Notes: generated by a model from the sequence alone, not told the origin. Numbered from the stretch's first letter, positions 7,717 to 43,049 are shown. The stretch: 64,000 bases of DNA from Escherichia coli (GCF_048403405.1 NZ_CP183129.1), one strand, 5' to 3'. A program made the numbers and translations.

Positions 7717-7732
7717 GTGTAAACGATTCCAC
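7717..7732 (+). promoter_or_regulatory. gal external operator OE (GalR/GalS site)
   Basis: Exact match to the OE sequence as I recall it, GTGTAAACGATTCCAC, upstream of the gal promoters. Confidence 0.8.
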
Positions 7733-7790: not shown

Positions 7791-7810
7791 TAAGCCTAAT
7801 GGAGCGAATT

Positions 7811-26163: not shown

Positions 26164-27732
26164 TTAGCGTGCCGGCTGAGTAGTCGTGGAAGACTGCTCA
26201 AAGTGATAGCGACCGGTTTTCAGGCTGCTTGGGCCGAGGCGTGCAAACTTGAACATTAAGAACAATTCTGCCACCAGGAACAGGGTATACAGGCCGCAAA
26301 TCAGCACCATTGAGAAGATGAGATCGCCTGCGGTCAGTGACGAGTTCGCCACAGCTGTCGGCAGCACTTCACCGATAGCCCACGGTTGGCGGCCATATTC
26401 AGCCACGAACCAGCCCGCTTCTACAGCAATCCACGGCAGCGGAATACCATACAGCGCGGCGCGCAGCAGCCATTTTTTCTCGCCAATGCGGTTGCGGATG
26501 ACACTCCAGAAAGAGAGCGCGATGATTGCCAGCAGCAGGAAGCCACACGCCACCATGATACGGAACGCGAAGTACAGCGGCGCTACACGCGGAATGGAGT
26601 CTTTGGTTGCCTGTTGAATCTGCGCTTCAGTCGCATCAGCCACGTTTGGCGTATAGCGTTTCAGCAGCAGACCGTAACCGAGGTCTTTCTTCATGCTATT
26701 GAACTGGTCACGAACCGCCTGGTCGGTAGAACCAGAACGCAGTTGTTCGAGCAGAGAGTACGCCTTCATCCCGTTACGAATGCGTTCTTCATGCTGCACC
26801 ATCAGTTCTTTCAGGCCGATAACTGGAGTATCCACGGAACGCGTTGCAATGATGCCCAGCGCGTAAGGGATCTGGATCGCAAATTTGTTCGTCTCCTCTT
26901 CCTGATCAGGAATGCCGAACAGAGTAAAGGCAGCAGGCGCAGGTTGCGTTTCCCACTCGGCTTCAATAGCAGCCAGTTTGGTTTTCTGCACGTCGCCCAT
27001 TTCGTAACCAGATTCATCACCCAGAACAATAACAGACAGAACGGCAGCCATACCGAAGCTGGCAGCGATAGCAAAGGAGCGTTTAGCGAAGGCGAAGTCA
27101 CGACCTTTCAGCATATACCATGCGCTGATACCGAGGATGAACATCGCGCCAGTCACATAACCAGACGCTACAGTGTGAACGAATTTCACCTGAGCAACCG
27201 GGTTAAGCACCAGCTCGGAGAAGCTCACCATCTCCATACGCATAGTTTCAAAGTTGAAATCGGACGCGATTGGGTTTTGCATCCAGCCGTTCGCAACCAG
27301 AATCCACAGTGCGGACAGGTTTGAACCGAGCGCCACCAGCCAGGTGACACACATATGCTGAACTTTACCCAGACGATCCCAACCGAAGAAGAACAGACCT
27401 ACAAAGGTGGATTCGAGGAAGAAGGCCATCAGACCTTCGATTGCCAGCGGCGCACCGAAGATATCCCCTACATAGTGGGAATAGTAAGACCAGTTAGTCC
27501 CGAACTGGAACTCCATAGTCAGACCGGTAGCCACACCCAGAGCGAAGTTGATACCAAACAACTTGCCCCAGAACTTGGTCATATCTTTATAAATCTGTTT
27601 GCCGGAAAGGACGTAGACCGTTTCCATAATGGCCAGCAGGAACGCCATACCGAGCGTCAGTGGCACAAAAAGGAAGTGGTACATCGCGGTCAAGGCAAAC
27701 TGTAAGCGCGACAGTTCGACTATATCTAACAT
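26164..27732 (-). CDS. cydA: Cytochrome bd-I ubiquinol oxidase subunit I
   Basis: Start at the second Met ([20 protein letters not shown]..., 522 aa); recognised as CydA. Confidence 0.96.
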
Positions 27733-28069
27733 CATGACTCCTTGCTCATCGCATGAAGACTCCGAGAGTGAACCCCGTTAGAAAGGGTCACACGCATGCC
27801 CCAATACAAAATTATTTGCTCGCCTCTATCGTTGCCATTTCATCAAAAGAGGAAAAGACAATGATAAAAAAGTTACAAATATGTTAATGAATAAACCAAA
27901 TTGATCCCGTAATTATATTACGCCGCAAAATCCTTACAATAAACAGGTTTTTATTGAGCAAATTTGCATTTTTCGACAGTGATCAATTTATAGCGAAATT
28001 GTCACGATCTCACCAATTTGATCTACGACAATTTATCGTGTTTTGCAGATTTTTTTCAAGAATTAAAAA

Positions 28070-28083
28070 TTGATTTATATCAA
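28070..28083 (-). promoter_or_regulatory. Candidate FNR site in the cydA upstream region
   Basis: Perfect TTGAT-N4-ATCAA (ttgatttatatcaa) about 340 bp upstream of cydA; a weaker half-site match ttgatctacgacaa lies at 28018-28031. Confidence 0.55.
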
Positions 28084-28537
28084 AACCAACCAAATATGTT
28101 AATTATGTATAAACCATAGATCATTGGTGATTTTATTGTTAATTTATTGTGAAATATTTATGCAACACAATTATTACAATGAAAAGGTATAGATAAAAAA
28201 CCAGTGTTTTATTTAACAGAACCGCCTTATCCACTTTTTATAATACCAATTGATTAGATTAGCCAATTTGTTGCTATTTTACATAACATATTTTTATCAA
28301 AGTTAATTGATTGTTGCGTTTATGAGCACCGGCCGTAAGCCCGTTATGTTATTGTTTCATTAGTAATAATCACTTAAATGTATCGATGAAACAGGTATGA
28401 CTTAGCGGGAGTGATTGTTTCTGAGTGAACAGAGACCACTTTCGCCTGATAAATGAAAAATGAGCGATTTTTGCAAGTTAGTTTTTCTATAGCCGAGTAC
28501 GCTCAGCGCCTCGCTTGATTACAATGAGGTTGCTGCT

Positions 28538-29482
28538 ATGAGTCCTGATAATATCAGTTCTGCTGTCAATCGCTTCTCAGGTTGGCCATCTAATGATCCT
28601 CTAAAAACAGATAAAGAATCAATGACATCACCCATGACTGTGCAGGTAATAAAGATGATTGCCGCCATCCTTGACCCACATCGGATAGTCGTTGGAATCG
28701 ATACACTTTATACAACGCAGCGCGAAACATTTACCTCAGAGAGTCAACAGCTCATTGAATCAGCATTGCAAACACTTCATGTGATGAATTTAAATAACCT
28801 GGAAACAAATCTCGATGAGGAAGGTCACTATCTGGCTTTTGGATATAACGTTGACACTCCTGACAGAATAACCGTTTCTGCTTATAATGAAAAAAAGCCT
28901 GGCTGCTATGGCCAATGTCTTTTAATACAGGATGACGAAACAGACTTATTTAACCTGATAAAAGTTAAAATTTTTGAAGCCAGGCATAATTATGTCGCTC
29001 AATTGATGAGCGATCCGGAATTTATGTTCAAATTTAGTTATAGCGCTCAACAAAATAGATTAGAACCTCATCTTCTGGTTCCCACTTATTTCCCTCTAAA
29101 AACAAACGAACCGGTTACGCAAGAGGATGTACTGTTACTTTATCGTTTCTTTAAAATGGATGGTGATTTTAATATATTAACATCAGATGAATACATGAGT
29201 ATCATGACACCTCTGATGAAGTGTGAGCGCAGCATCCACGACCACAACAGGTATGTGACGGGCAAAGATACCCTTCTTCTGGACTATCCTCCTTCTGGTA
29301 ACCAGATATATTTCCATATTTTTCCTGACGAATCAGCAACACTAGTCCTTTATTTTTCAAACAATGACATTGAATGTTTCGTCTTTGAAAGAGATATTCC
29401 GAGCCAGTATCGCTTTTTCAAAATGTTTACCAATCTGGCACTGGTTATTGATCAGTTAACCGATGCCAATCAAATACTTTAA
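28538..29482 (+). CDS. Hypothetical protein, 314 aa, no recognisable domain; in an AT-rich block
   Basis: Long ORF in a visibly AT-rich region; polar Ser/Pro/Asn-rich N-terminus (MSPDNISSAVNRFSGWPSNDP), no signal peptide or TM segment seen; plausible purine-rich RBS-like stretch upstream (aatgaggttgctgctATG). Confidence 0.6.
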   Translation: MSPDNISSAVNRFSGWPSNDPLKTDKESMTSPMTVQVIKMIAAILDPHRIVVGIDTLYTTQRETFTSESQQLIESALQTLHVMNLNNLETNLDEEGHYLAFGYNVDTPDRITVSAYNEKKPGCYGQCLLIQDDETDLFNLIKVKIFEARHNYVAQLMSDPEFMFKFSYSAQQNRLEPHLLVPTYFPLKTNEPVTQEDVLLLYRFFKMDGDFNILTSDEYMSIMTPLMKCERSIHDHNRYVTGKDTLLLDYPPSGNQIYFHIFPDESATLVLYFSNNDIECFVFERDIPSQYRFFKMFTNLALVIDQLTDANQIL

Positions 29483-29562
29483 TTTTTATATATTCCCTGT
29501 GGCAAATATTGCTAAACAATGCCCGGGGATTAATTTTTATTACTCACGGAAAGATTTAAATA

Positions 29563-29985
29563 ATGATCCCATCTCAAATCTCTTTCAACACCCTTCCTGT
29601 CAATGCAACATACGCTTCAGAGACAACAGTTGACACACAAAAATTCTCTGACATCCTCTACTCAGCGGGGTGTTCCCTAAAGGATCTGGCTTATTTGAGC
29701 AGATGTCTGGCATCAATACATCCGACTATCGCCAAAAACATTTATGAAACAGAAAATCTCAGCGATCAAAAATTACTACATATTGATTGCCGTAGTACAA
29801 ATGAAATCAAGATAAATATCTTTTTTGGTCAACAACGAGAAGGATTAATTGAAATTAGTTCTGACACAGTCATTTTTTCGATACTGTCTTCATTGATTGA
29901 CTCCACCATTTCTAAATTTCAACACCAAAACCCCGTTAACGGTTCTGTAAATCCTGACCTATTGTATGAGGATTATACTGATTAA
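29563..29985 (+). CDS. Hypothetical protein, 140 aa, acidic, no recognisable domain
   Basis: ORF 80 bp downstream of the 314-aa ORF on the same strand; by my count about 17 Asp+Glu against about 9 Lys+Arg; same AT-rich context. Confidence 0.5.
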   Translation: MIPSQISFNTLPVNATYASETTVDTQKFSDILYSAGCSLKDLAYLSRCLASIHPTIAKNIYETENLSDQKLLHIDCRSTNEIKINIFFGQQREGLIEISSDTVIFSILSSLIDSTISKFQHQNPVNGSVNPDLLYEDYTD

Positions 29986-30532
29986 ATCCCTCCTGTCGCG
30001 AAAAATGGCCTGCGTTATTGCCAGACGTAATAAAACTTTTGATTAACGTTTCTCGTACTGGTAGCACCTTCATGTACTTTTCTTTTTTACGAAAAATCAA
30101 AAGAGCTAACAAAGGTCATAATTCGCATGAATCATTAATTATTTGTTATTTTCAACATTATTTTTACATTAAGCAGAGATGAATTGCAGTGAAATTCGAC
30201 TTAACTTTTATGAAATGCATTTACTCATGGCTAAAGCCACGTCACAAAAATGCAAATTAGAAGTAGATCACAAATATCTCAATACATCAAATCAAGTTAA
30301 TTTTAAAAATTTAATATTCATGACATTAGTTGACATAACACACTGAATTATAATGAGAATTTGAAAACACACTTTAAACAATCATTTCCCGAAAGACATT
30401 TTGAAAATAGATCAATTGCAACATTACGGTCAGATAAAGACACTCCTGTGATATTAAACCTGTGCCGTTATGAACGGCCATAAATACGACGTGTGTAACT
30501 TATTTTACTCTCTGTCTTACAAAGGATTACCC

Positions 30533-30982
30533 ATGAAGAAAGCAACACTTGTGATTGGCGTTATTGGCGCGGACTGCCATGCAGTAGGCAATAAAGTTCT
30601 GGACCGCGTTTTTAGCAACCATGGCTTCAGAGTCATTAATCTGGGCGTAATGGTCAGCCAGGACGAATATATTGATGCTGCCATTGAAACTGGTGCTGAC
30701 GCGATTGTCGTCTCCTCTATCTATGGGCATGGCGATATCGATTGTCTGGGCATGCGCGAACGCTGCATTGAGCGTGGGCTGGGTAACATCCTGCTCTATG
30801 TGGGCGGTAACCTGGTGGTCGGAAAACATGACTTCGCTGACGTGGAAACCAAGTTCAAAGAGATGGGATTTGATCGCGTCTTTGCCCCAAGTCATGACTT
30901 AGAAGATGTTTGTCAGCTGATGGCCCACGATATCAACCAACGTCATGACGTTGATACTCGCATTCTTGAAGAGGCAATCTGA
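30533..30982 (+). CDS. mamA: Glutamate mutase sigma (S) subunit, B12-binding component
   Basis: Start set at [21 protein letters not shown] (good RBS aaaggattacccATG); carries the cobalamin His-ligand motif DxHxxG (DCHAVG); close resemblance to clostridial GlmS/MutS as I recall them. Confidence 0.9.
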
Positions 30983-32370
30983 TGCAAATCGTCTCTGTCG
31001 ATATTGGATCGACGTGGACCAAAGCAGCCCTCTTCGCCCGGGAGGGGGACGCGTTAACGTTGGTTAACCACGTACTGACCCCAACCACCACCCATCATCT
31101 GGCGAAGGGTTTTTTCTCCAGCCTGAACCTGGTGTTAAACGTAGATAATGCCCTCCCCCTGTTTAACAACGGTGAGGTTGCATTGAAGTATTCCTCCTCT
31201 GCCAAAGGTGGGCTGGCGGTTGCCGCAATGGGGTTGGTGCCATCTATCACCCTGGAAACCGCGAAAGTAACCGCTCACTCTGCGGGGGCTAAAATTGCGC
31301 AATATTACGCCTACAAGCTGAACCGCCGTGATATCCAGGCACTGGAAGAAACGCAGCCCGATATTCTCTTGTTCACCGGCGGCACCGACGGCGGAGAAGA
31401 AAGCTACGGCCTGAATAACGCCCGTGTGCTGGCAGAATCCAAACTCGACTGCGCCATTATTTATGCCGGAAACCGGGATATTCAGGACGAGGTGCAGGAG
31501 ATCCTAGGGCATAAAGACCTGACCATCGTCGACAACGTTCTGCCCGATCTTGACCATCCGAACCCTTTAGCTGCACGCCAGGCTATCTGCGACATATTCC
31601 TTAAACGCATCGTTAAAGGGAAAGGGCTGGATGTCATTGTTGATAAAACAGGCGAAGAACCAATGCCGACACCATGGACGGTCTTTGAACTGGTTAAGGC
31701 AATCAGTAACGTCGATCACAGCTGGAAAGAGTTCATGCTTATCGACATGGGCGGCGCAACCACCGATGTCTATTCAGCCTGTGCCAACACGCTCTCGCCC
31801 GACACCGTTTTACACGGCGTACCGGAACCCTTCGTGAAACGGACGGTGGAAGGCGATCTGGGAATGCGCGTCTCGGCAATGGTGGTTGGTGAAAGTGCGA
31901 AAGAGTTAGTCAATGTGAATTTTGCTCAGCAACCCGCACAGCTGGACGCTTTTTATCATTACCTCCGTCATCTAGTCGCTCATCCCGACTACTTACCCGC
32001 GAATGTAGAAGAAAAATATTTCGATACCGTCCTGGCCGGACTGTGTGTGGGTTATGCCACCGAAAGACATGCGGGCACCAAAAAAGAGGTCTGCACCTGC
32101 GTCGGCAATGTCGATTTACAGATGGGACGTGACCTGACAACCGTGCGTAAAGTCGTCGGATCCGGCGGATGGCTCTCGCGTGCCAGTCAGTTCGATATGC
32201 ATCACTGGTTGAAATACCGCGAGTTAAACGACGACGGTAAACGCATTCTCTTACCGACCGAATTTGAATATTACCGCGATTCCCGGGGGCTATTACCACT
32301 GCTGGCAAACGTCGCCAGAGTCGATCCGCTGGCCGCCGCGCGCACCAGTATTCAATGCTTAACCCTATAA
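30982..32370 (+). CDS. glmL: Glutamate mutase-associated L component (MutL/GlmL-like, putative reactivating chaperone)
   Basis: 462-aa ORF whose ATG overlaps the S-subunit stop (ATGA); sits between S and E as in clostridial mutS-mutL-mutE; N-terminus [18 protein letters not shown] is an ASKHA-type phosphate-1 motif. Confidence 0.75.
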   Translation: MQIVSVDIGSTWTKAALFAREGDALTLVNHVLTPTTTHHLAKGFFSSLNLVLNVDNALPLFNNGEVALKYSSSAKGGLAVAAMGLVPSITLETAKVTAHSAGAKIAQYYAYKLNRRDIQALEETQPDILLFTGGTDGGEESYGLNNARVLAESKLDCAIIYAGNRDIQDEVQEILGHKDLTIVDNVLPDLDHPNPLAARQAICDIFLKRIVKGKGLDVIVDKTGEEPMPTPWTVFELVKAISNVDHSWKEFMLIDMGGATTDVYSACANTLSPDTVLHGVPEPFVKRTVEGDLGMRVSAMVVGESAKELVNVNFAQQPAQLDAFYHYLRHLVAHPDYLPANVEEKYFDTVLAGLCVGYATERHAGTKKEVCTCVGNVDLQMGRDLTTVRKVVGSGGWLSRASQFDMHHWLKYRELNDDGKRILLPTEFEYYRDSRGLLPLLANVARVDPLAAARTSIQCLTL

Positions 32371-32388
32371 CAATTAAGGCTGCAATCA

Positions 32389-33834
32389 ATGGAACTTCGA
32401 AATAAGAAATTAACCCATGACGAATTCATGACCGAGCGGCAACAGGTACTGAAAACCTGGGAAACCGGCAAGGATGTTGAAAACTTTGAAGATGGCGTTA
32501 AATACCAACAAACCATTCCTGAGCATAAACGCTTCTCTCTTGTGCTGTTGAAAGCAGACAAGGAAGGTAAAACCCTTAGCCAACCGCGCGCAGGTGTGGC
32601 GCTGATGGACGAACACATCGAACTACTGAAAACACTACAAGAAGAGTGCGATCTGCTGCCGAGCACTATCGATGCATATACCCGTCTGAATCGGTACGAA
32701 GAAGCGGCTGTAGGGATTAAAAAATCCATCGAAGCCGGAACCTCTAAACTGAACGGTTTACCGGTCGTTAACCACGGCGTCGCAGCTTGCCGTCGCCTCA
32801 CCGAAACTTTGCAAAAACCGCTACAGATCCGCCACGGCACGCCAGATGCGCGTCTGCTGGCTGAAATCTCGATGTCCAGCGGCTTTACCAGTTATGAAGG
32901 CGGCGGCATTTCCTACAATATTCCGTATGCCAAGCGCGTAACGCTGGAAAAATCGATCCGCGACTGGCAGTACTGCGACCGTTTAATGGGGATGTATGAA
33001 GAACACGGGATCCGCATCAACCGCGAACCGTTTGGCCCACTAACGGGTACGCTGATCCCGCCGTTTATCTCGCACTCTATCGCGATAATCGAAGGCTTGC
33101 TGGCGCTGGAACAGGGTGTGAAATCTATCACCGTTGGTTATGGACAGGTCGGCAGCCTGACGCAGGATGTTGCGGCGATCCAGTCTCTGCGTGAACTTGC
33201 ACACGAATATTTTCAGAGCTATGGCTATACCGACTATGAATTAAGTACCGTGTTTCACCAGTGGATGGGCGGCTTTCCGGAAGACGAATCGAAAGCGTTC
33301 GCTATTATCTCCTGGGGCGCAGCCGTCGCGGGGATGTCTGGTGCCACCAAAGTCATCACCAAAAGTCCGCACGAAGCCTGGGGTATCCCGACTGCCGCTG
33401 CCAACATTCAGGGGCTGAAAGCCTCCCGCCAGATGCTCAACATGGTCAACGAGCAGAAATTCCCGCCGTGCCCTGCGGTTGAACTGGAAATTGAACTGAT
33501 TAAGAGCGAGGTTCGCGCGGTACTGAATAAAGTGTTCGAACTGGGTAATGGTGATATTGCGCGCGGTACGGTGCTGGCATTTGAAGCGGGCGTACTGGAT
33601 GTGCCGTTTGCGCCAGCCGCCTGCAACGCGGGCAAAATTCTTCCGGTCCGTGACAACACCGGCGCGATACGCGTACTGGAAGCCGGAGCCGTTCCATTGC
33701 CAAAAGATATTCTCGACCTCCACCACGATTACGTTGCGGAACGCGCACGCTTTGAAGGACGCCAACCGACATTCCAGATGGTTGTAGATGACATCAATGC
33801 TGTATCCCACAGTAAATTAATAGGAAGACCATAA
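32389..33834 (+). CDS. glmE: Glutamate mutase epsilon (E) catalytic subunit
   Basis: 481 aa; MELRNKKLTHDEF..., QPRAGVALMDEHIELL, LPSTIDAYTR, NGLPVVNHGV and GGGISYNIPYAK closely parallel clostridial GlmE/MutE as I recall it. Confidence 0.9.
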   Translation: MELRNKKLTHDEFMTERQQVLKTWETGKDVENFEDGVKYQQTIPEHKRFSLVLLKADKEGKTLSQPRAGVALMDEHIELLKTLQEECDLLPSTIDAYTRLNRYEEAAVGIKKSIEAGTSKLNGLPVVNHGVAACRRLTETLQKPLQIRHGTPDARLLAEISMSSGFTSYEGGGISYNIPYAKRVTLEKSIRDWQYCDRLMGMYEEHGIRINREPFGPLTGTLIPPFISHSIAIIEGLLALEQGVKSITVGYGQVGSLTQDVAAIQSLRELAHEYFQSYGYTDYELSTVFHQWMGGFPEDESKAFAIISWGAAVAGMSGATKVITKSPHEAWGIPTAAANIQGLKASRQMLNMVNEQKFPPCPAVELEIELIKSEVRAVLNKVFELGNGDIARGTVLAFEAGVLDVPFAPAACNAGKILPVRDNTGAIRVLEAGAVPLPKDILDLHHDYVAERARFEGRQPTFQMVVDDINAVSHSKLIGRP

Positions 33835-35075
33835 TGAAAATAAAACAGGCTCTGTTCACCGCTGGCTACTCCTCATTCTATTTCGATGACCAGCAGGCGA
33901 TAAAAAACGGAGCGGGTCACGACGGTTTTTTTTATACCGGGGAGCCGGTAACACAGGGGTTTAACGCCGTTCGTCAGGCCGGGGAGTGCGTATCGGTACA
34001 GTTGATTCTGGAAAACGGCGCGGTCGCCGTAGGTGACTGTGCTGCCGTACAGTATTCCGGGGCAGGTGGTCGCGATCCACTGTTCCTCGCAGAGCACTTT
34101 ATTCCGTTCCTCAACGACCATATCAAGCCATTACTGGTAGGCCGCGATGTGGATGCTTTCCTGCCGAATGCCCGTTTCTTCGACAAATTGCGTATTGACG
34201 GCAACTTGCTGCATACCGCCGTGCGCTACGGATTATCACAGGCGCTGCTTGATGCTACCGCGCTGGCAACCGGCCGTCTGAAAACTGAAGTGGTCTGTGA
34301 TGAATGGCAGTTGCCACGCGTGGCGGAATCCATTCCATTATTTGGTCAGAGCGGCGACGATCGATATATCGCCGTCGATAAGATGATCCTTAAGGGCATC
34401 GACGTGCTGCCCCATGCGCTGATTAATAACGTCGAAGAGAAGCTGGGCTTTAAAGGTGAAAAACTGCGCGAATATGTCCGCTGGCTGTCGGATCGTATTC
34501 TGAGCAAGCGCACCAGCGCACGCTACCACCCTACCCTGCACATCGATGTATACGGCACTATCGGTCTGATCTTCGATATGGATCCGCTTCGCTGTGCGCA
34601 ATACATCGCCAGCCTGGAAAAAGAAGCGCAAGGCCTGCCGCTCTACATTGAAGGGCCGGTCGATGCTGGTAACAAGCCCGATCAAATTCGCCTGCTGACC
34701 GCGATTACCAAAGAGCTGACACGCCTCGGTTCCGGCGTGAAAATTGTGGCCGATGAATGGTGTAACACCTACCAGGATATTGTTGATTTCACAGATGCCG
34801 CCAGTTGCCACATGGTGCAAATCAAAACCCCGGATCTGGGCAGTATTCACAACATCGTCGATGCGGTTCTTTACTGCAACAGCCACAGCATGGAAGCGTA
34901 CCAGGGCGGCACCTGCAATGAAACTGATGTCAGTGCCCGCACCTGTGTCCACGTCGCCCTTGCCGCTCGCCCTATGCGTATGCTGGTAAAGCCAGGGATG
35001 GGCTTTGACGAAGGCCTCGATATCGTCTTCAACGAAATGAATCGTACTATCGCGCTGTTGCAGGCTAAGGATTAA
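33834..35075 (+). CDS. mal: 3-Methylaspartate ammonia-lyase (enolase superfamily)
   Basis: 413 aa; ATG overlaps the glmE stop; DCAAVQYSGAGGRDPLF, QSGDDRY, LPHALINNVEEKLG, HMVQIKTPDLG and GGTCNET match MAL as I recall it. Confidence 0.93.
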   Translation: MKIKQALFTAGYSSFYFDDQQAIKNGAGHDGFFYTGEPVTQGFNAVRQAGECVSVQLILENGAVAVGDCAAVQYSGAGGRDPLFLAEHFIPFLNDHIKPLLVGRDVDAFLPNARFFDKLRIDGNLLHTAVRYGLSQALLDATALATGRLKTEVVCDEWQLPRVAESIPLFGQSGDDRYIAVDKMILKGIDVLPHALINNVEEKLGFKGEKLREYVRWLSDRILSKRTSARYHPTLHIDVYGTIGLIFDMDPLRCAQYIASLEKEAQGLPLYIEGPVDAGNKPDQIRLLTAITKELTRLGSGVKIVADEWCNTYQDIVDFTDAASCHMVQIKTPDLGSIHNIVDAVLYCNSHSMEAYQGGTCNETDVSARTCVHVALAARPMRMLVKPGMGFDEGLDIVFNEMNRTIALLQAKD

Positions 35076-35078
35076 CAA

Positions 35079-36449
35079 ATGGCTCGTTCTTTTAAAGTCT
35101 TATCGCCAACGGCAATCCTCGGGTATGGATTCCCGGAAGAGAGCTTCCGTAAAGCGATGGCAGAATCGCCCGATCTGATCGCCGTTGATGCAGGCTCTTC
35201 CGATCCTGGCCCCCACTACCTCGGGGCGGGCAAACCGTTTACCGATCGCGCAGGGGTCAAGCGCGATCTGCGCTATATGATCACCGCAGGCGTGCAAAAT
35301 AATATACCGGTGGTGATCGGAACGGCTGGCGGTTCTGGTGCCGCACCACACCTGGAGTGGTGCCGAGAAATAATTCATGAGATTGCCCAGGAAGAGCACC
35401 TCTCGTTCTCAATGGCGCTGATCCCGGCAGACGTTGACAAAGCCATCGTCCACCAGGCGCTGGATAACGGCAAAATCACGGCGCTGGAGTTTGTCCCGCC
35501 GTTAACCCACGACGCGATTGACGAAAGTACGTATATCGTTGCGCAAATGGGCATCGAACCCTTCCAGCGGGCGCTGAAAGAAGGCGCGCAAGTGGTGCTG
35601 GGCGGGCGCGCTTACGACCCGGCCTGCTTTGCTGCGCTTCCGATCATGCAAGGCTTTGATGAAGGTCTGGCGCTGCATTGTGGGAAAATCCTTGAATGCG
35701 CGGCAATCGCCGCAACGCCCGGCTCAGGCTCTGACTGTGCGATGGGCATCATTGATGACAACGGCTTTACGCTGAAGACATTTAATCCGAAGCGTAAATT
35801 TACCGAAACGTCAGCGGCTGCACACACACTGTATGAGAAATCCGATCCCTACTTCCTGCCTGGACCTGGCGGCGTGTTGAACCTGAAAGGCTGCACATTT
35901 AAAGCGGTCAATGACAGCGAAGTGTACGTCAGCGGTTCTAAGCATGAAGAAACGCCGTATGCCCTGAAACTGGAAGGTGCGCGACGAGTGGGCTTCCGCT
36001 GTCTGACCATCGCAGGAACGCGCGACCCGATCATGATCGCCGGGATCGATAAAATCATCGATGAAGTCAAAACCAGCGTTTCGCGTAACCTGTCGCTCGA
36101 CGATGACAGCATTCGCATCAATTTCCACCTGTACGGCAAAAACGGGGTGATGGGAGACCATGAACCGATGCAAACTGCCGGGCATGAGCTGGGGATTGTC
36201 CTTGATGTAGTTGCACCGACCCAGGAAATTGCCAACAGCGTTTGCTCGCTGGTGCGCTCTACCATGCTGCACTACGGCTATGAAAACCGCATCGCTACCG
36301 CAGGTAATCTGGCGTTCCCGTTCTCCCCTTCTGATATCCAGGGCGGGCCGGTATACGAATTTTCCATATATCACCTGATTGAAGCCAACGACGCTCTGCG
36401 TTTTGATTTCCATATTGAACAGGTGACGCCAGAAGGAGTTCAGGCATGA
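35079..36449 (+). CDS. Uncharacterised protein, probably DUF1446 / AtuA-like family
   Basis: 456-aa ORF starting 4 nt after the MAL stop; family assignment is from memory of AtuA-like N-terminal features and is not verified. Confidence 0.5.
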   Translation: MARSFKVLSPTAILGYGFPEESFRKAMAESPDLIAVDAGSSDPGPHYLGAGKPFTDRAGVKRDLRYMITAGVQNNIPVVIGTAGGSGAAPHLEWCREIIHEIAQEEHLSFSMALIPADVDKAIVHQALDNGKITALEFVPPLTHDAIDESTYIVAQMGIEPFQRALKEGAQVVLGGRAYDPACFAALPIMQGFDEGLALHCGKILECAAIAATPGSGSDCAMGIIDDNGFTLKTFNPKRKFTETSAAAHTLYEKSDPYFLPGPGGVLNLKGCTFKAVNDSEVYVSGSKHEETPYALKLEGARRVGFRCLTIAGTRDPIMIAGIDKIIDEVKTSVSRNLSLDDDSIRINFHLYGKNGVMGDHEPMQTAGHELGIVLDVVAPTQEIANSVCSLVRSTMLHYGYENRIATAGNLAFPFSPSDIQGGPVYEFSIYHLIEANDALRFDFHIEQVTPEGVQA

Positions 36450-36763
36450 AACAGTCAATTGTCTCACTGGCGCAAGTCATTCGTTCGAAAAATGCCGGAC
36501 CTTACGAACTGGTTTTAGATATTTTATTTAAAACCAAAGAAAACTATGAGCGTGTCAAATCATCAGGGCAATTAACCCCAGAACTGATCGCGCGCTTATA
36601 TCATGTTGAACCTGACTTTATTCATCGTATTGTCTGGTTTGATCCTTCTAACGCAGTAAAAATCGTCATGCCACGAGATATTATCTCCGGGAATGTAGGT
36701 GACAATGATGTCTATGGTGCACAGCAACATGCACCTTTATTAAATATGAGTTTCGATTTGTAA
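36446..36763 (+). CDS. Small uncharacterised protein, possibly DUF4387, coupled to the upstream ORF
   Basis: 105-aa ORF whose ATG overlaps the upstream stop (ATGA); family name is a tentative recollection. Confidence 0.45.
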   Translation: MKQSIVSLAQVIRSKNAGPYELVLDILFKTKENYERVKSSGQLTPELIARLYHVEPDFIHRIVWFDPSNAVKIVMPRDIISGNVGDNDVYGAQQHAPLLNMSFDL

Positions 36764-36846
36764 AAATCCGAATACTTTTAGCCAACTGACATCCCGTCAC
36801 TTATTGCAGTTCAACACTTCAGCTATTTGTAAGGTTGTAATAGCAG

Positions 36847-36878
36847 GTAGATGCCTGAATCTCTATTCGGGCATCTAC
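36847..36878 (+). terminator. Intra-operon stem-loop (possible partial terminator or attenuator)
   Basis: 9-bp perfect stem gtagatgcc / ggcatctac with a 14-nt loop, followed by a U-rich but interrupted tract (ttctcctgattctgattt); lies between the small coupled ORF and the transporter. Confidence 0.4.
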
Positions 36879-36923
36879 TTCTCCTGATTCTGATTTATCG
36901 CCGTGCACCTGATGGAGGAAAAA

Positions 36924-38204
36924 ATGAAGAAAATAAGTTTAACCACGATGATTCTTTTGGCGCTGGTACTTGGAATGATTATCGGCGTAGTGCTCAATAA
37001 CACTGCTTCACCGGAAACCGAAAAACTCTATGCGCAAGAAATATCGATATTCACGACGATTTTCTTACGACTGATAAAAATGATTATCGCTCCGTTAGTG
37101 GTCTCTACCCTGGTGGTAGGTATAGCTAAAATGGGCGATGCCAAAGCCCTTGGTCGTATTTTTTCTAAAACACTCTTTTTATTTATTTGCGCCTCATTGC
37201 TGTCAATTGCCTTAGGCTTGATAACAGTAAATTTCTTCATGCCAGGCACAGGAATTAATTTTGTTGCACACGGAGCCGAAACCACCGGAGTGGTCGCGTC
37301 AGAACCCTTTACGCTAAAAGTATTTATTTCGCATGCTTTCCCCACCAGCATTGTCGATGCCATGGCGCACAATGAAATTTTGCAAATCGTGGTGTTCTCA
37401 ATTTTCCTCGGCTGTAGCCTGACGGCGATTGGCGAGAAAGGCAGCGCCATCGTTCACGCCTTAGATTCGCTGGCACATGCCATGTTAAAGCTCACTGGCT
37501 ACGTCATGCTCTTCGCTCCCCTGACCGTATTCGCTGCTATTTCAGCATTGATTGCTGAACGAGGACTGGCAGTTATGGTGAGCGCCGGGATCTTTATGGG
37601 TGAATTTTATTTCACCATGTTATTACTTTGGGTGCTGCTTATCGGTCTGGCCATCGTTTATGTTGGCCCCTGCATCAGACGCCTGACCCGCGCCCTTTCG
37701 GAACCCGCCCTGCTGGCATTTACCACATCCAGTTCTGAAGCGGCTTTTCCGGGAACGCTTGAAAAACTGGAGCAATTTGGCGTTTCCCCCAAAATTGCCA
37801 GCTTTGTCTTACCCATTGGCTACTCATTTAATCTTGTTGGATCAATGGCCTACTGCTCCTTCGCCACAGTTTTCATCGCCCAGGCCTGCAATATCCATTT
37901 ATCCATCGGTGAGCAAATCACCATGCTGTTGATCCTGATGTTGACCTCGAAAGGAATGGCTGGCGTACCACGCGCCTCAATGGTGGTTATCGCCGCCACG
38001 CTCAACCAGTTCAATATTCCGGAAGCGGGGCTGATCTTGCTGATGGGCGTTGATCCGTTCCTTGATATGGGGCGTTCCGCGACAAACGTCATGAGCAACG
38101 CAATGGGCGCTGCGATGGTGAGTCGGTGGGAAGGCGAACATTTCGGCGAGGGTTGTCGGGGTAAAGCATTAAAACCCAATGAATCGAACGTTGCTCTGCC
38201 CTGA
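36924..38204 (+). CDS. Dicarboxylate/amino acid:cation symporter (DAACS family; GltP/DctA-like)
   Basis: Start at MKKISLTTMILL with RBS ggagg 5 nt upstream; about 426-aa polytopic protein; LRLIKMIIAPLV and surrounding TM pattern typical of DctA/GltP family carriers. Confidence 0.8.
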   Translation: MKKISLTTMILLALVLGMIIGVVLNNTASPETEKLYAQEISIFTTIFLRLIKMIIAPLVVSTLVVGIAKMGDAKALGRIFSKTLFLFICASLLSIALGLITVNFFMPGTGINFVAHGAETTGVVASEPFTLKVFISHAFPTSIVDAMAHNEILQIVVFSIFLGCSLTAIGEKGSAIVHALDSLAHAMLKLTGYVMLFAPLTVFAAISALIAERGLAVMVSAGIFMGEFYFTMLLLWVLLIGLAIVYVGPCIRRLTRALSEPALLAFTTSSSEAAFPGTLEKLEQFGVSPKIASFVLPIGYSFNLVGSMAYCSFATVFIAQACNIHLSIGEQITMLLILMLTSKGMAGVPRASMVVIAATLNQFNIPEAGLILLMGVDPFLDMGRSATNVMSNAMGAAMVSRWEGEHFGEGCRGKALKPNESNVALP

Positions 38205-38311
38205 GGGGGATCTTAAGCAATCAGAAGCCAATGACTACGCATTTTTATAAGCCGGATCATGAAGTTAGACGGCAATTAAGTAAAACTAACGTTTAAGGTG
38301 AAAAGTGAAAT

Positions 38312-39964
38312 ATGTCCAAACCATTTATCTGGCAAGAACCGTTTCTACAAAATAAAGACGGTACAGAATATACATTAATTAGCGATCAACATATTACAGT
38401 AACGGAATTAGACGGCGAAGAAGTAATAAAAATCGCTCCTGAAGCATTAACGCTGCTTGCCCGGCAGGCATTTTATGAAGCCTCTTTTTTCTTACGTTCC
38501 GCTCATTTGCAACAGGTCGCCAGCATTCTTAACGATCCGCAGGCCAGTAGTAATGATAAATACGTTGCGTTGCAGTTATTACGTAATGCTGAAGTCTCAG
38601 CAAAAGGGGTATTACCCAACTGTCAGGATACCGGCACCGCAACTATTGTTGCCAGTAAAGGGCAACAGATATGGACGGGAGGTAACGACGCTGAAGCCTT
38701 AAGCAAAGGCATTTACAGTACTTTCCAGGAAAATAACCTGCGCTTTTCACAAAATGCGCCGCTGGATATGTACACCGAAGTCAATACGCAAACCAATCTC
38801 CCGGCGCAGATTGATATCAGCGCTGTCGCTGGTGATGAGTACCATTTTCTCTGTATTAATAAAGGGGGCGGCTCTGCCAATAAAGCCGCGCTTTATCAGG
38901 AAACCAAATCCTTATTGCAACCAGAAAAACTGACCGCATTTTTAATCGAAAAAATGAAATCGCTGGGCACCGCTGCCTGCCCGCCTTACCACATCGCCTT
39001 TGTCGTCGGAGGGCTTTCAGCCGATCAAACCTTAAAAGTTGCCAAGCTGGCCTCAACGAAATATTACGACAATTTGCCCACCAGCGGAAACGAGCAAGGA
39101 CAAGCATTCCGTGATATTGAGCTGGAAAAAGTATTGCTCGAGGCCAGTCAGCAATTTGGTATTGGTGCGCAATTTGGAGGTAAATATTTCGCTCATGATA
39201 TTCGCGTCATTCGTCTGCCGCGTCACGGTGGCTCCTGCCCGATAGCTATGGCGCTCTCCTGTTCTGCCGATCGCAATATCAAAGCAAAAATTAACAAGCA
39301 CGGTATCTGGCTGGAAAAACTCGAACACAATCCGGGGCAATATATTCCAGCCTCACTGCGGGAAGAAAATCACGCGCAACATGTACAACTGGATCTAAAC
39401 CGTCCGTTGCGTGACGTGATGCAGGATCTCGCCAGATTACCGGTAGGCACCCGCGTGTCGTTAAGTGGTCCCATCGTAGTGGCACGCGATATCGCCCACG
39501 CCAAAATAAAAGCGCGGCTGGATAACGCCGAACCGATGCCGGATTACCTGAAGCATCATATTGTCTATTACGCTGGCCCGGCGAAAACACCGGAGAACAT
39601 GGCCTGCGGTTCACTGGGTCCAACCACGGGCGGTCGAATGGACGGTTATGTCGATACCTTCCAGGCGGCTGGCGGCAGTCTGGTGATGTTATCGAAAGGT
39701 AACCGCAGCCAGCAGGTCACCGATGCCTGTCACAAACATGGTGGCTTCAATCTGGGTAGTATTGGCGGTGCAGCTGCGTTACTGGCGCAAGAATATGTCA
39801 AAAGTCTGCGTTGCCTGGAATACCCGGAGCTGGGTATGGAAGCGGTGTGGATGATGGAAGTGGAAAATCTGCCCGCATTCATCCTGGTAGATGATAAAGG
39901 CAATAATTTCTTTAGTCAGTTTGAGCAGCAACACCGCTGCGCCAGTTGCCCTGCGGGACATTAA
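38312..39964 (+). CDS. fumD: Class I fumarate hydratase-type hydratase, probable mesaconase (FumD-like)
   Basis: 550 aa, same size class as FumA/FumB; N-terminal [22 protein letters not shown]... and [10 protein letters not shown] ([4Fe-4S] hydro-lyase signature region) recognised. Confidence 0.85.
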
Positions 39965-39973
39965 GGAAAATGA

Positions 39974-40576
39974 ATGGAAGCGCGAATTTCAACTGAACGG
40001 CATGTGCAGCGCCAGCAGAAATTGAAGGAACAGGTCGATACGCGCGTCGCGGCGGCGATAGAGAAAAAAGGGATTTTGATTGTTTTCACCGGCAATGGCA
40101 AAGGGAAATCCACTGCCGCGTTTGGTACTGTGACGCGCGCGGTGGGTCATGGCAAAACGGTGGGGGTTGCGCAGTACATCAAGGGGCAATGGGACAACGG
40201 CGAATACAACCTTCTCCAGCCGCTGGGGGTTGAGTTTCATATTATGGGAACCGGTTTTACCTGGGAGACACAGAACCGGCAAGCGGATATCGACGCGGCG
40301 AAAGAGGTCTGGTCGGAAAGCAAACGGATGCTGGCTGACAAGCGTTACGACTTAGTGGTGCTTGATGAGCTGACCTATATGCTGGCTTACCATTATCTGG
40401 ACACCGAAGAAGTGATCGCTTCTCTGCAAAACCGCCCGGCACAACAAAGTGTCATTGTCACCGGACGCGGTTGCCACAGTCAGATATTAAAAATGGCGGA
40501 TACGGTCAGCGAAATCCGCCCCGTCAAACATGCTTTTGATAACGGCATTCAGGCGCAGCCGGGTATCGACTGGTAA
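39974..40576 (+). CDS. Cob(I)yrinic acid a,c-diamide / cob(I)alamin adenosyltransferase (CobA/BtuR family)
   Basis: 200 aa; P-loop GNGKGKST; near-colinear with E. coli BtuR as I recall it (IIVFTGNGKGKTTAAFG...GFTWETQNR...VVLDELTYM...VKHAFD). Confidence 0.88.
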   Translation: MEARISTERHVQRQQKLKEQVDTRVAAAIEKKGILIVFTGNGKGKSTAAFGTVTRAVGHGKTVGVAQYIKGQWDNGEYNLLQPLGVEFHIMGTGFTWETQNRQADIDAAKEVWSESKRMLADKRYDLVVLDELTYMLAYHYLDTEEVIASLQNRPAQQSVIVTGRGCHSQILKMADTVSEIRPVKHAFDNGIQAQPGIDW

Positions 40577-40579
40577 TAA

Positions 40580-40606
40580 CTGCGCCTGGCATCCCGCCAG
40601 GCGCAG
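40580..40606. terminator. Bidirectional terminator between the adenosyltransferase gene and the convergent LysR gene
   Basis: Perfect 11-bp inverted repeat ctgcgcctggc / gccaggcgcag with a 5-nt loop, flanked by A/T; abuts both stop codons. Confidence 0.7.
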
Positions 40607-40609
40607 GTT

Positions 40610-41515
40610 TTACATCTCCTGCGGTACGACCGATTTCGCCAGCAACCATTCACGAAATTGCTGCAAGTGCGGCGAGTCAGACTTCTCTTCCTGCCACGTC
40701 ATAATAAAACGATTACCGGTACGAATAGGCACATCACAGGGAATCACCATATCGCCACTATCCAAATCATGTTGAATAGCGAACCGTGGTAACAGCGCCA
40801 CGCCGAGATTAGAGCGCACGGCGGCAATCAGCATTGAAAGCAAATCGAAACGTGGTCCGTTATTGACCAGCGGACTGCTAACGCCAGATAAAGCAAACCA
40901 CTCTTCCCAGCCAGTAATACGGGTGCTTTGATGCAGAAGTGGTAACTCAGTAAGCAGTTCTGCCACTGACAGTTTTTGATCGGACATTGCAAGCAAACTG
41001 CCGCTGCATACCGGCAAAATCTCCTCATCAAAGAGATATTCTACTTCCGCCCAGGGCGCGCAAAAATTTTCGCGCATAATGACAGCATCGTACTCCCGAT
41101 TAAGAAAATCGCCGTTATTAGCTAAAGAATGAATATTAACAATAATATCGGGATGTAACTTTGTGAATTCATGTAAATTTGGGATTAACCAGTGGGTACT
41201 AAAAGTAGGATTAACGGCAAGTTCAATAACCTGAACCGTAGGCTGCCAGGTCATAATGGTATTGGTATCGCGTTCCAGCTTATTTAATGTTTCTTTTACT
41301 ATCCCCAGGTAATACTTCCCTGCATCATTAAGAAAAATACGTTTTTTAGAGTGTGAAAATAACGGAGTATGTAAAAATTCCTCCAGCGCACTCACTTGTC
41401 TGAATACAGCACTTTGGGTTAACGCTAACTCCTCTGCCGCTCTGGTATAACTTTCATGACGTGCGACGACCTCAAAAGTCACCAGCAGCTCCGTTTTAGG
41501 TATTTTTCCTCGCAT
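40610..41515 (-). CDS. LysR-type transcriptional regulator
   Basis: 301 aa; N-terminal HTH (ESYTRAAEELALTQSAVFRQVSALEE) and LysR substrate-binding domain. Confidence 0.88.
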   Translation of the reverse strand: MRGKIPKTELLVTFEVVARHESYTRAAEELALTQSAVFRQVSALEEFLHTPLFSHSKKRIFLNDAGKYYLGIVKETLNKLERDTNTIMTWQPTVQVIELAVNPTFSTHWLIPNLHEFTKLHPDIIVNIHSLANNGDFLNREYDAVIMRENFCAPWAEVEYLFDEEILPVCSGSLLAMSDQKLSVAELLTELPLLHQSTRITGWEEWFALSGVSSPLVNNGPRFDLLSMLIAAVRSNLGVALLPRFAIQHDLDSGDMVIPCDVPIRTGNRFIMTWQEEKSDSPHLQQFREWLLAKSVVPQEM

Positions 41516-41554
41516 AATGCCGTCCCTTAAAAATAGTTTAAACCATCAAAAATA

Positions 41555-41576
41555 CATTACTTATTACGAAGTAATG
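41555..41576 (-). promoter_or_regulatory. Dyad-symmetric site upstream of the LysR gene (candidate autoregulatory operator)
   Basis: Perfect inverted repeat cattactt-attacg-aagtaatg centred about 50 bp upstream of the LysR start codon, in AT-rich DNA. Confidence 0.4.
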
Positions 41577-42080
41577 GTAACCAAAGCAGCAATAAATAAT
41601 TTATAAGAATCATGATTGACATTTATAACCCAGTAAGCCTGGCGTGACAAATATCTTAATCAGATAATAATAATCCGAAAAGCACAGCGCCTTTCGAATT
41701 ATCCGGAATCACATTAAGTGAAAATTATTAAATTGATATCATTTATCATATCTGTGGATATTATGATAAACAATCAACAAAGATTTTATTTTTGATTTAT
41801 AGCATATCCCTCTAAGAATTTTTGCGATGCTGCAATATCCGGGTAAAGACCCGATCCTGGCTGACAAATGGCACGACTTGACGATAAGCGGTGAACATCG
41901 CTTTTGTTGATTTACTTAACGCTACGGTCAAACGCTGGGAAGCCAGTGCATCAGGTAACGATTCGAAATTCGCCGTCGTTCTTATTCGTGGCTTGCGGTC
42001 GGTTGCGGCAATCCACAGTGGCTGTGGTCATGCAGTCAAGCCAGCGGTCAGATTTCGACCGTGGTTAACATTTAAGGCAT

Positions 42081-42179
42081 AAAAAAGGCCATCATACGAT
42101 GGCCAACCATGTCGAAACCGACAGCCCTTCGCCATTCCTGTAGAGGGAAGCGGCGAGGGCTATTTCTTATTACAGATAT
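42081..42179 (-). ncRNA. sdhX: Probable SdhX (RybD)-type sRNA from the sucD 3' UTR, with intrinsic terminator
   Basis: Directly downstream of the sucD stop; ends in hairpin ggccatcgtatgatggcc followed by a T run (read on the minus strand); K-12 has an sRNA at this position; the 5' boundary is undefined because it is a processing product. Confidence 0.55.
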
Positions 42180-43049
42180 TTATTTCAGAACAGTTTTCAG
42201 TGCTTCACCGATATCCGCCAGGCTGCGAACGGTTTTCACGCCTGCGGCTTCCAGAGCAGCGAATTTCTCATCCGCAGTCCCTTTTCCACCGGCAATGATC
42301 GCACCCGCGTGGCCCATACGTTTGCCTTTCGGCGCAGTCACACCAGCGATGTAACCCACAACAGGCTTGGTAACGTGCTCTTTGATGTACGCAGCCGCTT
42401 CTTCTTCAGCGCTACCGCCGATCTCACCGATCATCACGATCGCTTCGGTCTGCGGATCTTTTTCGAACATTTCGAGGATGTCGATAAAGTTAGAGCCAGG
42501 GATCGGGTCGCCGCCGATACCAACACAGGTCGACTGACCGAAACCGTAATCCGTGGTCTGTTTCACCGCTTCATAGGTCAGTGTACCGGAACGGGAAACG
42601 ATACCCACTTTACCCGGTTTGTGAATGTGACCAGGCTGGATACCGATTTTGCATTCACCCGGAGTGATAACGCCTGGGCAGTTCGGGCCGATCATGCGAA
42701 CGCCCGCTTCATCCAGTTTCACCTTCACGGTCAGCATATCCAGCGTCGGGATGCCTTCAGTGATGGTGATAATCAGTTTGATGCCTGCATCAATAGCTTC
42801 CAGAATGGAGTCTTTGCAGAACGGTGCTGGTACGTAGATAACAGAAGCGGTAGCGCCAGTAGCAGCAACAGCTTCACGCACGGTGTTGAACACCGGCAGG
42901 CCGAGGTGGGTGGTGCCGCCTTTACCTGGGGTTACGCCGCCAACCATTTTAGTGCCGTATGCAATGGCCTGTTCTGAGTGGAAAGTCCCCTGGCTACCGG
43001 TAAAGCCCTGGCAGATAACCTTGGTGTTTTTATCAATTAAAATGGACAT
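42180..43049 (-). CDS. sucD: Succinyl-CoA synthetase alpha subunit
   Basis: 289 aa, [24 protein letters not shown]...; recognised as SucD. Confidence 0.97.

Follow-up and report, generated by a model that had tools for sequence, protein, structure and literature searches.

An accessory genomic island of Escherichia coli predicted to encode the methylaspartate pathway of glutamate catabolism, including a citramalate lyase

The island and its genes

In the window (the whole 64-kb stretch of E. coli DNA that was analysed), a genomic island occupies the place that mngRAB holds in the K-12 annotation between cydA and sucD. On blastn comparison with K-12 (764000-773200), homology ends at window position 28108 and restarts at 42077. 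The features of the island are collected in Table 1. The cluster has a GC content of 51-55%, which is not a clostridial composition, and is widespread in Enterobacterales; the flanking AT-rich DNA has 34-39% GC. The two AT-rich ORFs upstream of the cluster gave no match in Pfam, NCBIfam, PADLOC, PHROG or PDB. Their homologues are found only at high identity, and the named sources are all E. coli.

Table 1. Coordinates of the genes and candidate control features of the island
Feature	Position in window	Strand	Evidence
Genomic island, cydA to sdhX/sucD, in place of K-12 mngR-mngA-mngB	28109..42076		blastn vs K-12
Conserved box TTTTGAAAATAGATCAATTGC with dyad TTGA-N7-TCAA	30398..30418	+	cross-genus alignment
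glmS (mutS), glutamate mutase sigma subunit, B12-binding	30533..30982	+	NF002612, 252.7 bits (cut-off 110)
glmL (mutL), glutamate mutase accessory/reactivating protein	30982..32370	+	NF040745, 507.3 bits (cut-off 475); TIGR01319, 884.8 bits
glmE (mutE), glutamate mutase epsilon (catalytic) subunit	32389..33834	+	TIGR01503, 863.5 bits (cut-off 390)
mal, 3-methylaspartate ammonia-lyase	33834..35075	+	TIGR01502, 543.9 bits (cut-off 286)
cmlA, large subunit of citramalate lyase (AtuA/DUF1446 family)	35079..36449	+	PDB 9ERQ/9EVF match
cmlB, small subunit of citramalate lyase (DUF4387)	36446..36763	+	PDB 9ERQ_B match; Pfam PF14330, 2.9e-39
15-bp stem-loop directly 3' of cmlB	36846..36879	+	RNA fold z = -4.6 (intergenic region)
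Dicarboxylate/amino acid:cation symporter, GltP/DctA family paralogue	36924..38204	+	NF008440 GltP, 305 bits; DctA, 314 bits
fumD, class I fumarase acting as mesaconase	38312..39964	+	NF011921, 1284 bits (cut-off 1060)
cobO/cobA-type cob(I)alamin adenosyltransferase	39974..40576	+	TIGR00708, 246.6 bits (cut-off 167.75)
11-bp GC-rich hairpin between convergent cobO and LysR gene	40580..40606		terminator scan; -29.5 kcal/mol, z = -3.8
LysR-type transcriptional regulator (GcvA-like)	40610..41515	-	NF008352, 221.8 bits (under cut-off)

Six ORFs lie on the same strand between 30533 and 36763, with junctions of -1, +18, -1, +3 and -4 nt and one purine-rich SD sequence 6-12 nt 5' of every start. RefSeq annotates the identical six CDS; for glmS, the start at 30533 is preferred over that of a longer ORF at 30470. 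The initial annotation had described these genes as one translational unit linked by overlaps or near-abutments, and most of its junctions are exactly as it gave them: the 18-nt spacer between glmL and glmE (32370/32389), the 3-nt gap between mal and cmlA (35075/35079) and the ATGA overlap of cmlA and cmlB at 36446, a genuine overlap of 4 nt. At 30982, glmS and glmL do overlap, by a single shared base in cTGATGc and not by the ATGA that had been proposed, and the overlap of glmE and mal at 33834 is likewise real, a single base (TAATG) and not of the ATGA type. A terminator scan found no strong plus-strand terminator inside 30533-36763. The packing suggests that the six genes are co-transcribed, and they probably form a tightly packed, translationally coupled operon ending in a stem-loop. 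The packing is more than a local accident: nine other loci, ranging from Enterobacterales to Riflebacteria, have the same six-gene order, and none of their junctions exceeds an overlap of 20 nt or a gap of 18 nt. Minus-strand ORFs antisense to the block, such as 34338-35078 and 35811-36467, have no RefSeq annotation and were taken as spurious opposite coding sequence.

The functional unit extends beyond this block to 40576, taking in the symporter, FumD and the adenosyltransferase, plus the LysR regulator. The symporter, whose start in Table 1 is that of RefSeq, scores under the equivalog cut-offs of both models listed; it is named GltP in the published cluster (PMC4682846, Fig 5) and is presumed to import glutamate. 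The fumarase exceeds the cut-off of the FumD model and scores under those of the FumA and FumB models; it is a single-chain class I Fe-S fumarase of the FumD type, clustered with glm/mal. The adenosyltransferase gene is a second copy beside the housekeeping btuR, and its product is 67% identical to K-12 BtuR.

Predicted enzymes from glutamate to pyruvate and acetate

The initial annotation had named glutamate mutase S-L-E and methylaspartase, and both identities hold, with curated NCBIfam cut-offs passed and catalytic residues kept. GlmS is 62% identical to PDB 1I9C_A over 124 aa, and that alignment confirms the proposed cobalamin His-ligand motif: residues 14-19 read DCHAVG (DxHxxG, the base-off/His-on B12 motif), the same as in the Clostridium cochlearium protein. 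GlmE, 58.5% identical to PDB 6H9E_B, keeps the equivalents of all five substrate-binding residues (R66, R100, R149, E171 and Y181 in C. cochlearium numbering; 1CCW structure). With a DxHxxG S subunit, these GlmE residues and glmL lying between S and E, the genes have the make-up of glutamate mutase (EC 5.4.99.1), and by family membership glmS, glmL and glmE are predicted to form an adenosylcobalamin (AdoCbl)-dependent system. Mal is 93.7% identical to PDB 1KKO and 56% to 1KCZ, and keeps Q172, H194, D238, E273, D307, Q329 and K331; among these, Lys331 and His194 are the catalytic bases and Asp238/Glu273/Asp307 the Mg ligands (1KCZ/1KKO). This full-length match with its residues identifies a 3-methylaspartate ammonia-lyase (EC 4.3.1.2, enolase superfamily). 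Against the Citrobacter amalonaticus methylaspartase (PDB 1KKO/1KKR), the alignment is ungapped over 413 aa in both proteins, all active-site residues are shared, and the host species is the only difference.

The last two genes of the block had been set down as unknowns, a description that no longer applies. An NCBIfam search of both gave no match, and their identity came only from the PDB sequence search: CmlA is 92.1% identical to subunit A of PDB 9ERQ/9EVF, and CmlB matches PDB 9ERQ_B (‘Citramalate lyase, subunit B (cmlB)’) at 84.6% identity over 104 aa. The two entries were released in October 2025 under the titles ‘Citramalate lyase - AMPPNP - citramalate complex’ and ‘Citramalate lyase - ADP - pyruvate complex’. 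Further features agree with the crystallised enzyme: an A subunit of about 456 aa (PF07287), a B subunit of about 105 aa (PF14330), and adjacent, overlapping genes. No primary paper on the CmlAB enzyme was found in the literature searched. In a 2026 preprint, Raoultella planticola cmlAB (Berg laboratory) splits citramalate into pyruvate and acetate in E. coli, and sustains the growth of an engineered strain by splitting mesaconate-derived citramalate (10.64898/2026.01.16.699985). Splitting of (S)-citramalate, stated for the Raoultella enzyme and implied by the PDB ligand complexes, is predicted for E. coli CmlAB. RefSeq calls CmlA an ‘AtuA family protein’, a name that misleads on function: CmlA does match the AtuA Pfam model (PF07287), but weakly and only over residues 63-393 (68.8 bits), and its genomic context is glutamate fermentation and not terpene catabolism, as for AtuA of the Pseudomonas acyclic terpene utilisation cluster.

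With CmlAB identified, the six-gene block covers the front end and also one back-end step. The initial annotation had proposed a clostridial-type front end; glutamate to mesaconate stands, and the restriction to a front end does not. It has also been conceivable that the enterobacterial pathway stops at mesaconate or (S)-citramalate, to be secreted (e.g. as a host-directed metabolite) and not used for carbon or energy. This is very improbable, given that the genes after mal are so close to a crystallised citramalate lyase, that cmlAB is translationally packed with mal at every locus examined, and that the 2015 assays were done on cells without cluster expression.

Since CmlAB is a citramalate lyase by this identification, the cluster would encode every step that leads from glutamate to pyruvate and acetate, and we consider it very likely that the accessory island encodes a complete methylaspartate (mesaconate) pathway of glutamate catabolism. 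In the proposed scheme, (i) glutamate would enter through the GltP-like symporter, (ii) the adenosylcobalamin-dependent mutase GlmS2-GlmE2, kept active by GlmL, would convert it to (2S,3S)-3-methylaspartate, with the island's own CobA-type adenosyltransferase supplying AdoCbl from scavenged corrinoid, (iii) methylaspartate ammonia-lyase would release mesaconate and NH3, (iv) the class I fumarase FumD would hydrate mesaconate to (S)-citramalate, and (v) the nucleotide-binding, two-subunit lyase CmlAB would yield pyruvate and acetate. Evidence from other laboratories covers FumD activity (O157:H7), methylaspartase activity and structure (Citrobacter, 94%) and CmlAB structures and use (Raoultella, 92%/85%). 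The present analysis establishes to which family each protein belongs, and how the genes are packed and how far that packing is conserved. Co-transcription, the regulator and its site, flux in E. coli in vivo and the dependence on B12 are what we infer.

Glutamate mutase and methylaspartase are also common to the haloarchaeal methylaspartate cycle (PMC4682846), and CmlAB, which binds ATP analogues, could in principle drive a condensation. An anaplerotic or assimilatory role of the haloarchaeal kind, or a reverse route from pyruvate and acetate to glutamate, is nevertheless extremely improbable. The island lacks mesaconate CoA-transferase, mesaconyl-CoA hydratase and beta-methylmalyl-CoA lyase, the place of these CoA-route enzymes being taken by FumD (hydratase) and CmlAB (lyase); it carries a GltP-type uptake carrier; FumD favours mesaconate hydration (PMC4682846); and the engineered strain grew by citramalate cleavage.

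The catabolic pathway is built differently from its clostridial counterpart. The Clostridium tetanomorphum/C. cochlearium operon has the same S-L-E-mal order (mutS-mutL-mutE(-mal), corresponding to glmS-glmL-glmE), and shares the DxHxxG His-on motif and the residues that bind the substrate, at 56-62% protein identity. In clostridia, however, the citramalate lyase is of the CitDEF type (ACP-dependent) and comes with CitCXG, the mesaconase MesAB has two subunits and the regulator is a GntR protein (PMC4682846), whereas E. coli has CmlAB, single-chain FumD and a LysR regulator, plus the transporter and adenosyltransferase. None of the ten island proteins matches the families of CitD (ACP), CitE, CitF, CitC, CitX or CitG, and none of these is annotated in the 64-kb window.

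Candidate control signals

The TTGA-N7-TCAA dyad begins 132 nt 5' of the glmS ATG. The box that contains it, TTTTGAAAATAGATCAATTGC, reads the same in E. coli, Pseudescherichia, Enterobacter and an ‘Aeromonas sp.’ assembly, and Yersinia and Hafnia also keep its core TGA..A.A.ATCAATTG unchanged, amid otherwise diverged AT-rich DNA. The product of the island's LysR gene is presumed to regulate the cluster, and a LysR gene travels with the cluster in the Pseudescherichia, Enterobacter, ‘Aeromonas’, Salmonella and Yersinia loci. The box is a candidate operator for the island's LysR-type regulator, on which transcription probably depends. Two observations count against the assignment: the box lies in AT-rich DNA, and the regulator gene is at the opposite end of the cluster, where it converges on cobO instead of diverging from the operon. 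On manual inspection the box was rejected as an FNR site, its spacing being one base off (TTGA-N6-TCAA for FNR), and as a CRP site, whose half-sites do not fit. There is no sigma-70 consensus promoter 5' of glmS on the plus strand of 29205-34716, and no cobalamin riboswitch (RF00174 and relatives) or other Rfam RNA at E <= 1 on either strand of 27500-42500.

The stem-loop after cmlB, which would close the six-gene block, is likely to be a partial terminator or attenuator, or a 3' structure that stabilises the mRNA. The O157:H7 allele replaces a U.G with a U-A pair in the stem, and five of the six Enterobacterales loci have a stem-loop directly after cmlB; those of Pseudescherichia, Enterobacter (a canonical GC stem with U5), Yersinia and Hafnia are unrelated in sequence. 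Next on this strand come the symporter gene, fumD and cobO, as far as the hairpin between cobO and the LysR gene, a strong terminator that is likely to be bidirectional.

Distribution, cobalamin and significance

The locus is already known, and the present analysis re-identifies its genes: the island is the published B12-dependent glutamate-fermentation cluster that about one-fifth of E. coli strains carry, O157:H7 among them. Kronen & Berg (PLoS One 2015, PMC4682846) described this exact cluster, in 26.5% of E. coli, at the same locus and with no structural difference (glmS-mutL-glmE-mal-DUF1446-(DUF4387)-gltP-fumD-cobA-LTTR in their Fig 5), and showed biochemically that O157:H7 FumD is a mesaconase converting mesaconate to (S)-citramalate. 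They left DUF1446 as being of ‘unknown function’ and the fate of citramalate as ‘unclear’, a gap that the 2025 PDB entries fill. What is added here beyond published work is the dN/dS, the cross-phylum six-gene order, the post-cmlB stem-loop, the TTGA-N7-TCAA box and the finding of no B12 riboswitch.

Around 1117-1134 of 5426 complete E. coli genomes carry the cluster (20.6% for 1117, counting genomes that hold 80% or more of the 10.4-kb query at 95-100% identity), a prevalence similar to the published one, and its DNA is 98.5% identical to O157:H7 genomes over 10.4 kb. The cluster is silent in all laboratory conditions tried (PMC4682846), its flanks are AT-rich, and a Salmonella assembly holds a degraded copy in which mal is split and glmS and glmL are missing, as would suit a cryptic remnant of horizontal transfer that is decaying and no longer functions in present-day E. 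coli. That reading is very improbable in view of the nine ORFs, all intact, the intact catalytic residues, the number of genomes at such identity, and a dN/dS of about 0.06-0.07, with no stops, against each of two diverged E. coli lineages (O157:H7 and one other).

E. coli cannot make the corrin ring, and cobalamin must therefore be scavenged; here the initial annotation agreed with established knowledge. Its further expectation, that the pathway is conditional on B12 supply, is plausible as far as it goes and is not the whole story: an O157:H7 strain kept anaerobically with or without hydroxo-, cyano- or adenosylcobalamin failed to grow on glutamate and showed no detectable methylaspartase activity, the cluster not being expressed (PMC4682846). 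The limiting factor in that test was expression, not B12.

A wider and more tentative picture, doubtful as a whole, joins these elements. The glmS-L-E-mal-cmlA-cmlB block may be a self-contained, phylum-spanning module that in E. coli is kept silent in AT-rich DNA and switched on only by a gut or host signal, through the LysR regulator at the TTGA-N7-TCAA box; the stem-loop may set how much transcription reads through into the genes for the transporter, the mesaconase and the adenosyltransferase; and the nucleotide bound by CmlAB may reflect ATP-coupled citramalate cleavage, a chemistry that might extend to the AtuA family. If this is true, about one-fifth of E. coli strains could live on luminal glutamate in a way that depends on B12 scavenging and has never been seen working in the laboratory.

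Recognition of the cluster's potential for glutamate fermentation dates from 1997-2015, and crystal structures have now been deposited for citramalate lyase, the last enzyme that was missing. The cluster would equip many E. coli, pathogens and commensals, to ferment gut-abundant glutamate with scavenged vitamin B12, which ties it to gut ecology and the competition for corrinoids.

The six-gene block and the pathway it belongs to

The block glmS-glmL-glmE-mal-cmlA-cmlB consists of six consecutive ORFs on the + strand, as initially claimed, coordinates included. The junctions measure -1 nt for glmS/glmL (cTGATGc), +18 nt for glmL/glmE, -1 nt for glmE/mal (TAATG), +3 nt for mal/cmlA and -4 nt for cmlA/cmlB (ATGA); the first had been described as an ATGA overlap and is actually TGATG. 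A purine-rich Shine-Dalgarno sequence lies 6-12 nt 5' of all start codons, within the gene before, and the genes would be co-transcribed and translationally coupled. A longer glmS ORF from 30470 was rejected: the NCBIfam alignment begins with the first residue encoded from 30533, the start that RefSeq also uses.

Table. Features of the window and of comparison loci. Block ORFs are from the ORF listing and direct junction reading; profile scores are in bits, with the NCBIfam cut-off in brackets.
Feature	Position	Strand	Length	Remarks
Orphan ORF	28538-29482	+	314 aa	
Orphan ORF	29563-29985	+	140 aa	
Leader box	30398-30418	+	21 bp	TTTTGAAAATAGATCAATTGC
glmS	30533-30982	+	149 aa	NF002612, 252.7 (110)
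glmL	30982-32370	+	462 aa	NF040745, 507.3 (475)
glmE	32389-33834	+	481 aa	TIGR01503, 863.5 (390)
mal	33834-35075	+	413 aa	TIGR01502, 543.9 (286)
cmlA	35079-36449	+	456 aa	
cmlB	36446-36763	+	105 aa	
Stem-loop	36846-36879	+	15 bp	
GltP/DctA-family symporter	36924-38204	+		same strand, 3' of block
fumD (FumD-type class I fumarase)	38312-39964	+		NF011921, 1284 (1060)
CobA/CobO adenosyltransferase	39974-40576	+		67% identity to K-12 BtuR
GC hairpin	40580-40606		11 bp	
LysR-type regulator	40610-41515	-		convergent
ybgQ fimbrial usher	about 54919-57378	+		pseudogene with internal stop per identical RefSeq record
Seventh gene, locus L005	11698-12654			
Seventh gene, locus L007	11677-12618			
Seventh gene, locus L008	11712-12665			
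Cobalamin-type neighbours, locus L014	1319-3004			
Cobalamin-type neighbours, locus L017	1-2857			
Degraded copy, locus L012	3400-8000			mal ORFs 6761-7522, 7563-7997

The curated NCBIfam cut-offs are passed by all four of glmS, glmL, glmE and mal. The arginine claw, Glu171 and Tyr181 are conserved in GlmE, as are Lys331, His194, Gln329 and the three Mg ligands in MAL, the residues singled out in the structure papers. GlmE shares 58.5% of its residues with the crystallised subunit of C. cochlearium, and MAL 93.7% with the enzyme of Citrobacter amalonaticus (1KKO); the DCHAVG motif reported for the S subunit is present at GlmS residues 14-19. Scores and residues support the identification as glutamate mutase S-L-E and methylaspartase. 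By sequence and structure homology, GlmSE with AdoCbl would convert glutamate to methylaspartate, and MAL methylaspartate to mesaconate and NH3.

The last two genes, initially left as unknowns, match no NCBIfam profile; in Pfam, CmlA is AtuA/DUF1446 (weak, 68.8 bits) and CmlB is DUF4387. A PDB sequence search settles their predicted identity as citramalate lyase subunits: CmlA is 92.1% identical to chain A and CmlB 84.6% to chain B of the crystallised enzyme (9ERQ/9EVF), named by the depositors "Citramalate lyase, subunit A (cmlA)" and "subunit B (cmlB)". The two depositions are titled "Citramalate lyase - AMPPNP - citramalate complex" (release date 2025-10-22) and "Citramalate lyase - ADP - pyruvate complex" (2025-10-08). 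No primary paper on the CmlAB enzyme turned up in the literature searched; a January 2026 preprint (10.64898/2026.01.16.699985) works with Raoultella planticola "cmlAB" provided by the Berg laboratory. In RefSeq CmlA is an 'acyclic terpene utilization AtuA family protein', while close homologues are labelled '3-methylaspartate ammonia-lyase' in some records; both names are misleading for CmlA, because the PDB assigns citramalate lyase subunit A.

Since FumD would convert mesaconate to (S)-citramalate, as biochemically shown for the O157 enzyme, and CmlAB, at 92%/85% identity to the crystallised enzyme, would cleave citramalate to pyruvate and acetate, the island is predicted to encode the whole methylaspartate pathway. 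The initial reading, a glutamate-fermentation front end, was thus right at its core and incomplete. Glutamate may enter through the symporter. Corrin-ring synthesis is absent from E. coli, and AdoCbl would be made from scavenged corrinoid by the island's own adenosyltransferase.

The cluster in other bacteria

The gene order, with no junction overlapping by more than 20 nt or spaced by more than 18 nt, recurs in three distant bacteria (CmlA 62-64% identity; one source-named Candidatus Rifleibacterium) and in Pseudescherichia, Yersinia, Hafnia, Enterobacter and an "Aeromonas sp." assembly. In the Enterobacterales loci compared, the conserved core is the six-gene block, because the genes beyond cmlB differ: the symporter is present in all, and fumD, cobO and glutaminase vary. 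On Enterobacter contig L016 the cluster adjoins mngR/mngA/mngB without replacing them, and it comes with a glutaminase and one more regulator, of PocR/AraC type. A Salmonella enterica assembly (GCA_009355475.1, locus L012) holds a degraded copy with glmS/glmL unrecognisable and mal split; hdeA and an ISL3 transposase lie close by.

In all three non-enterobacterial clusters examined (L005, L007, L008), a seventh gene of 313-318 aa, missing from E. coli, directly abuts cmlB. Its product has a Walker-A P-loop and no family match, and might serve the mutase or the lyase as a nucleotide-dependent accessory factor. Cobalamin-biosynthesis-type genes (TP_methylase, GHMP kinase, CbiA) adjoin the cluster in Yersinia enterocolitica and Hafnia (loci L014 and L017), whereas the adenosyltransferase is the only cobalamin gene travelling with the E. 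coli cluster; this fits B12 synthesis in the former hosts and corrinoid scavenging in E. coli.

Leader box and terminal stem-loop

Neither a riboswitch nor a sigma-70 consensus promoter was found in the leader region. Upstream of glmS lies the TTTTGAAAATAGATCAATTGC box, which contains a TTGA-N7-TCAA dyad and is exact in four genera, with a core invariant in 6/6 Enterobacterales loci amid a diverged AT-rich leader. The generic LysR box is T-N11-A, and the TGA-N7-TCA dyad fits it as a possible LysR operator; the cluster may be under LysR control.

After cmlB, the E. coli stem-loop (intergenic fold z = -4.6) has sequence-unrelated counterparts in the corresponding place in Pseudescherichia, Yersinia, Hafnia and Enterobacter, the last with a canonical GC stem followed by U5. 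In the O157:H7 allele a U.G pair of the stem has become U-A, which keeps the pairing. This recurrence across genera and the preserved pairing support the six-gene boundary of the initial annotation as a real punctuation mark; read-through past it is probably partial.

The island in E. coli and earlier work

K-12 homology ends at 28108 and restarts at 42077: the 14-kb island lies between cydA and sdhX/sucD in place of mngR-mngA-mngB (K-12 counterpart 765153-771084). GC content is 51-55% in the coding part and 34-39% in flanks and leader. The stretch 30300-40700 (10.4 kb) matches E. coli TUM14771 at 100% identity and O157:H7 genomes at 98.5%; among 5426 complete E. coli genomes, 1117 carry at least 80% of it. 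Two orphan ORFs at the cydA-side end (35-39% GC) had no match in Pfam, NCBIfam, PADLOC, PHROG or PDB searches. For the 314-aa ORF, all homologues found lie at 65-99% identity, and the sole source-named match is from E. coli. The orphan stretch co-occurs with the island (1134/5426 genomes) and is missing from the Pseudescherichia and Enterobacter versions.

The same cluster is drawn by Kronen & Berg (PLoS One 2015, PMC4682846, Fig 5) as GlmS, MutL, GlmE, Mal, DUF1446, GltP, FumD, CobA and LTTR, with a frequency of 26.5% among E. coli strains and 90.6% among O157:H7 strains. That paper demonstrated FumD to be a mesaconase/fumarase and called citramalate's fate unclear. Anaerobic glutamate media with or without hydroxo-, cyano- or adenosylcobalamin gave no growth and no stimulation, and no methylaspartase activity appeared under the glutamate/cobalamin growth tests. 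Methylaspartase had served as a marker of the pathway in Enterobacteriaceae already in Kato & Asano 1997 (its ref 27). Much of the testing initially proposed had been done in that study, and the whole system was already described.
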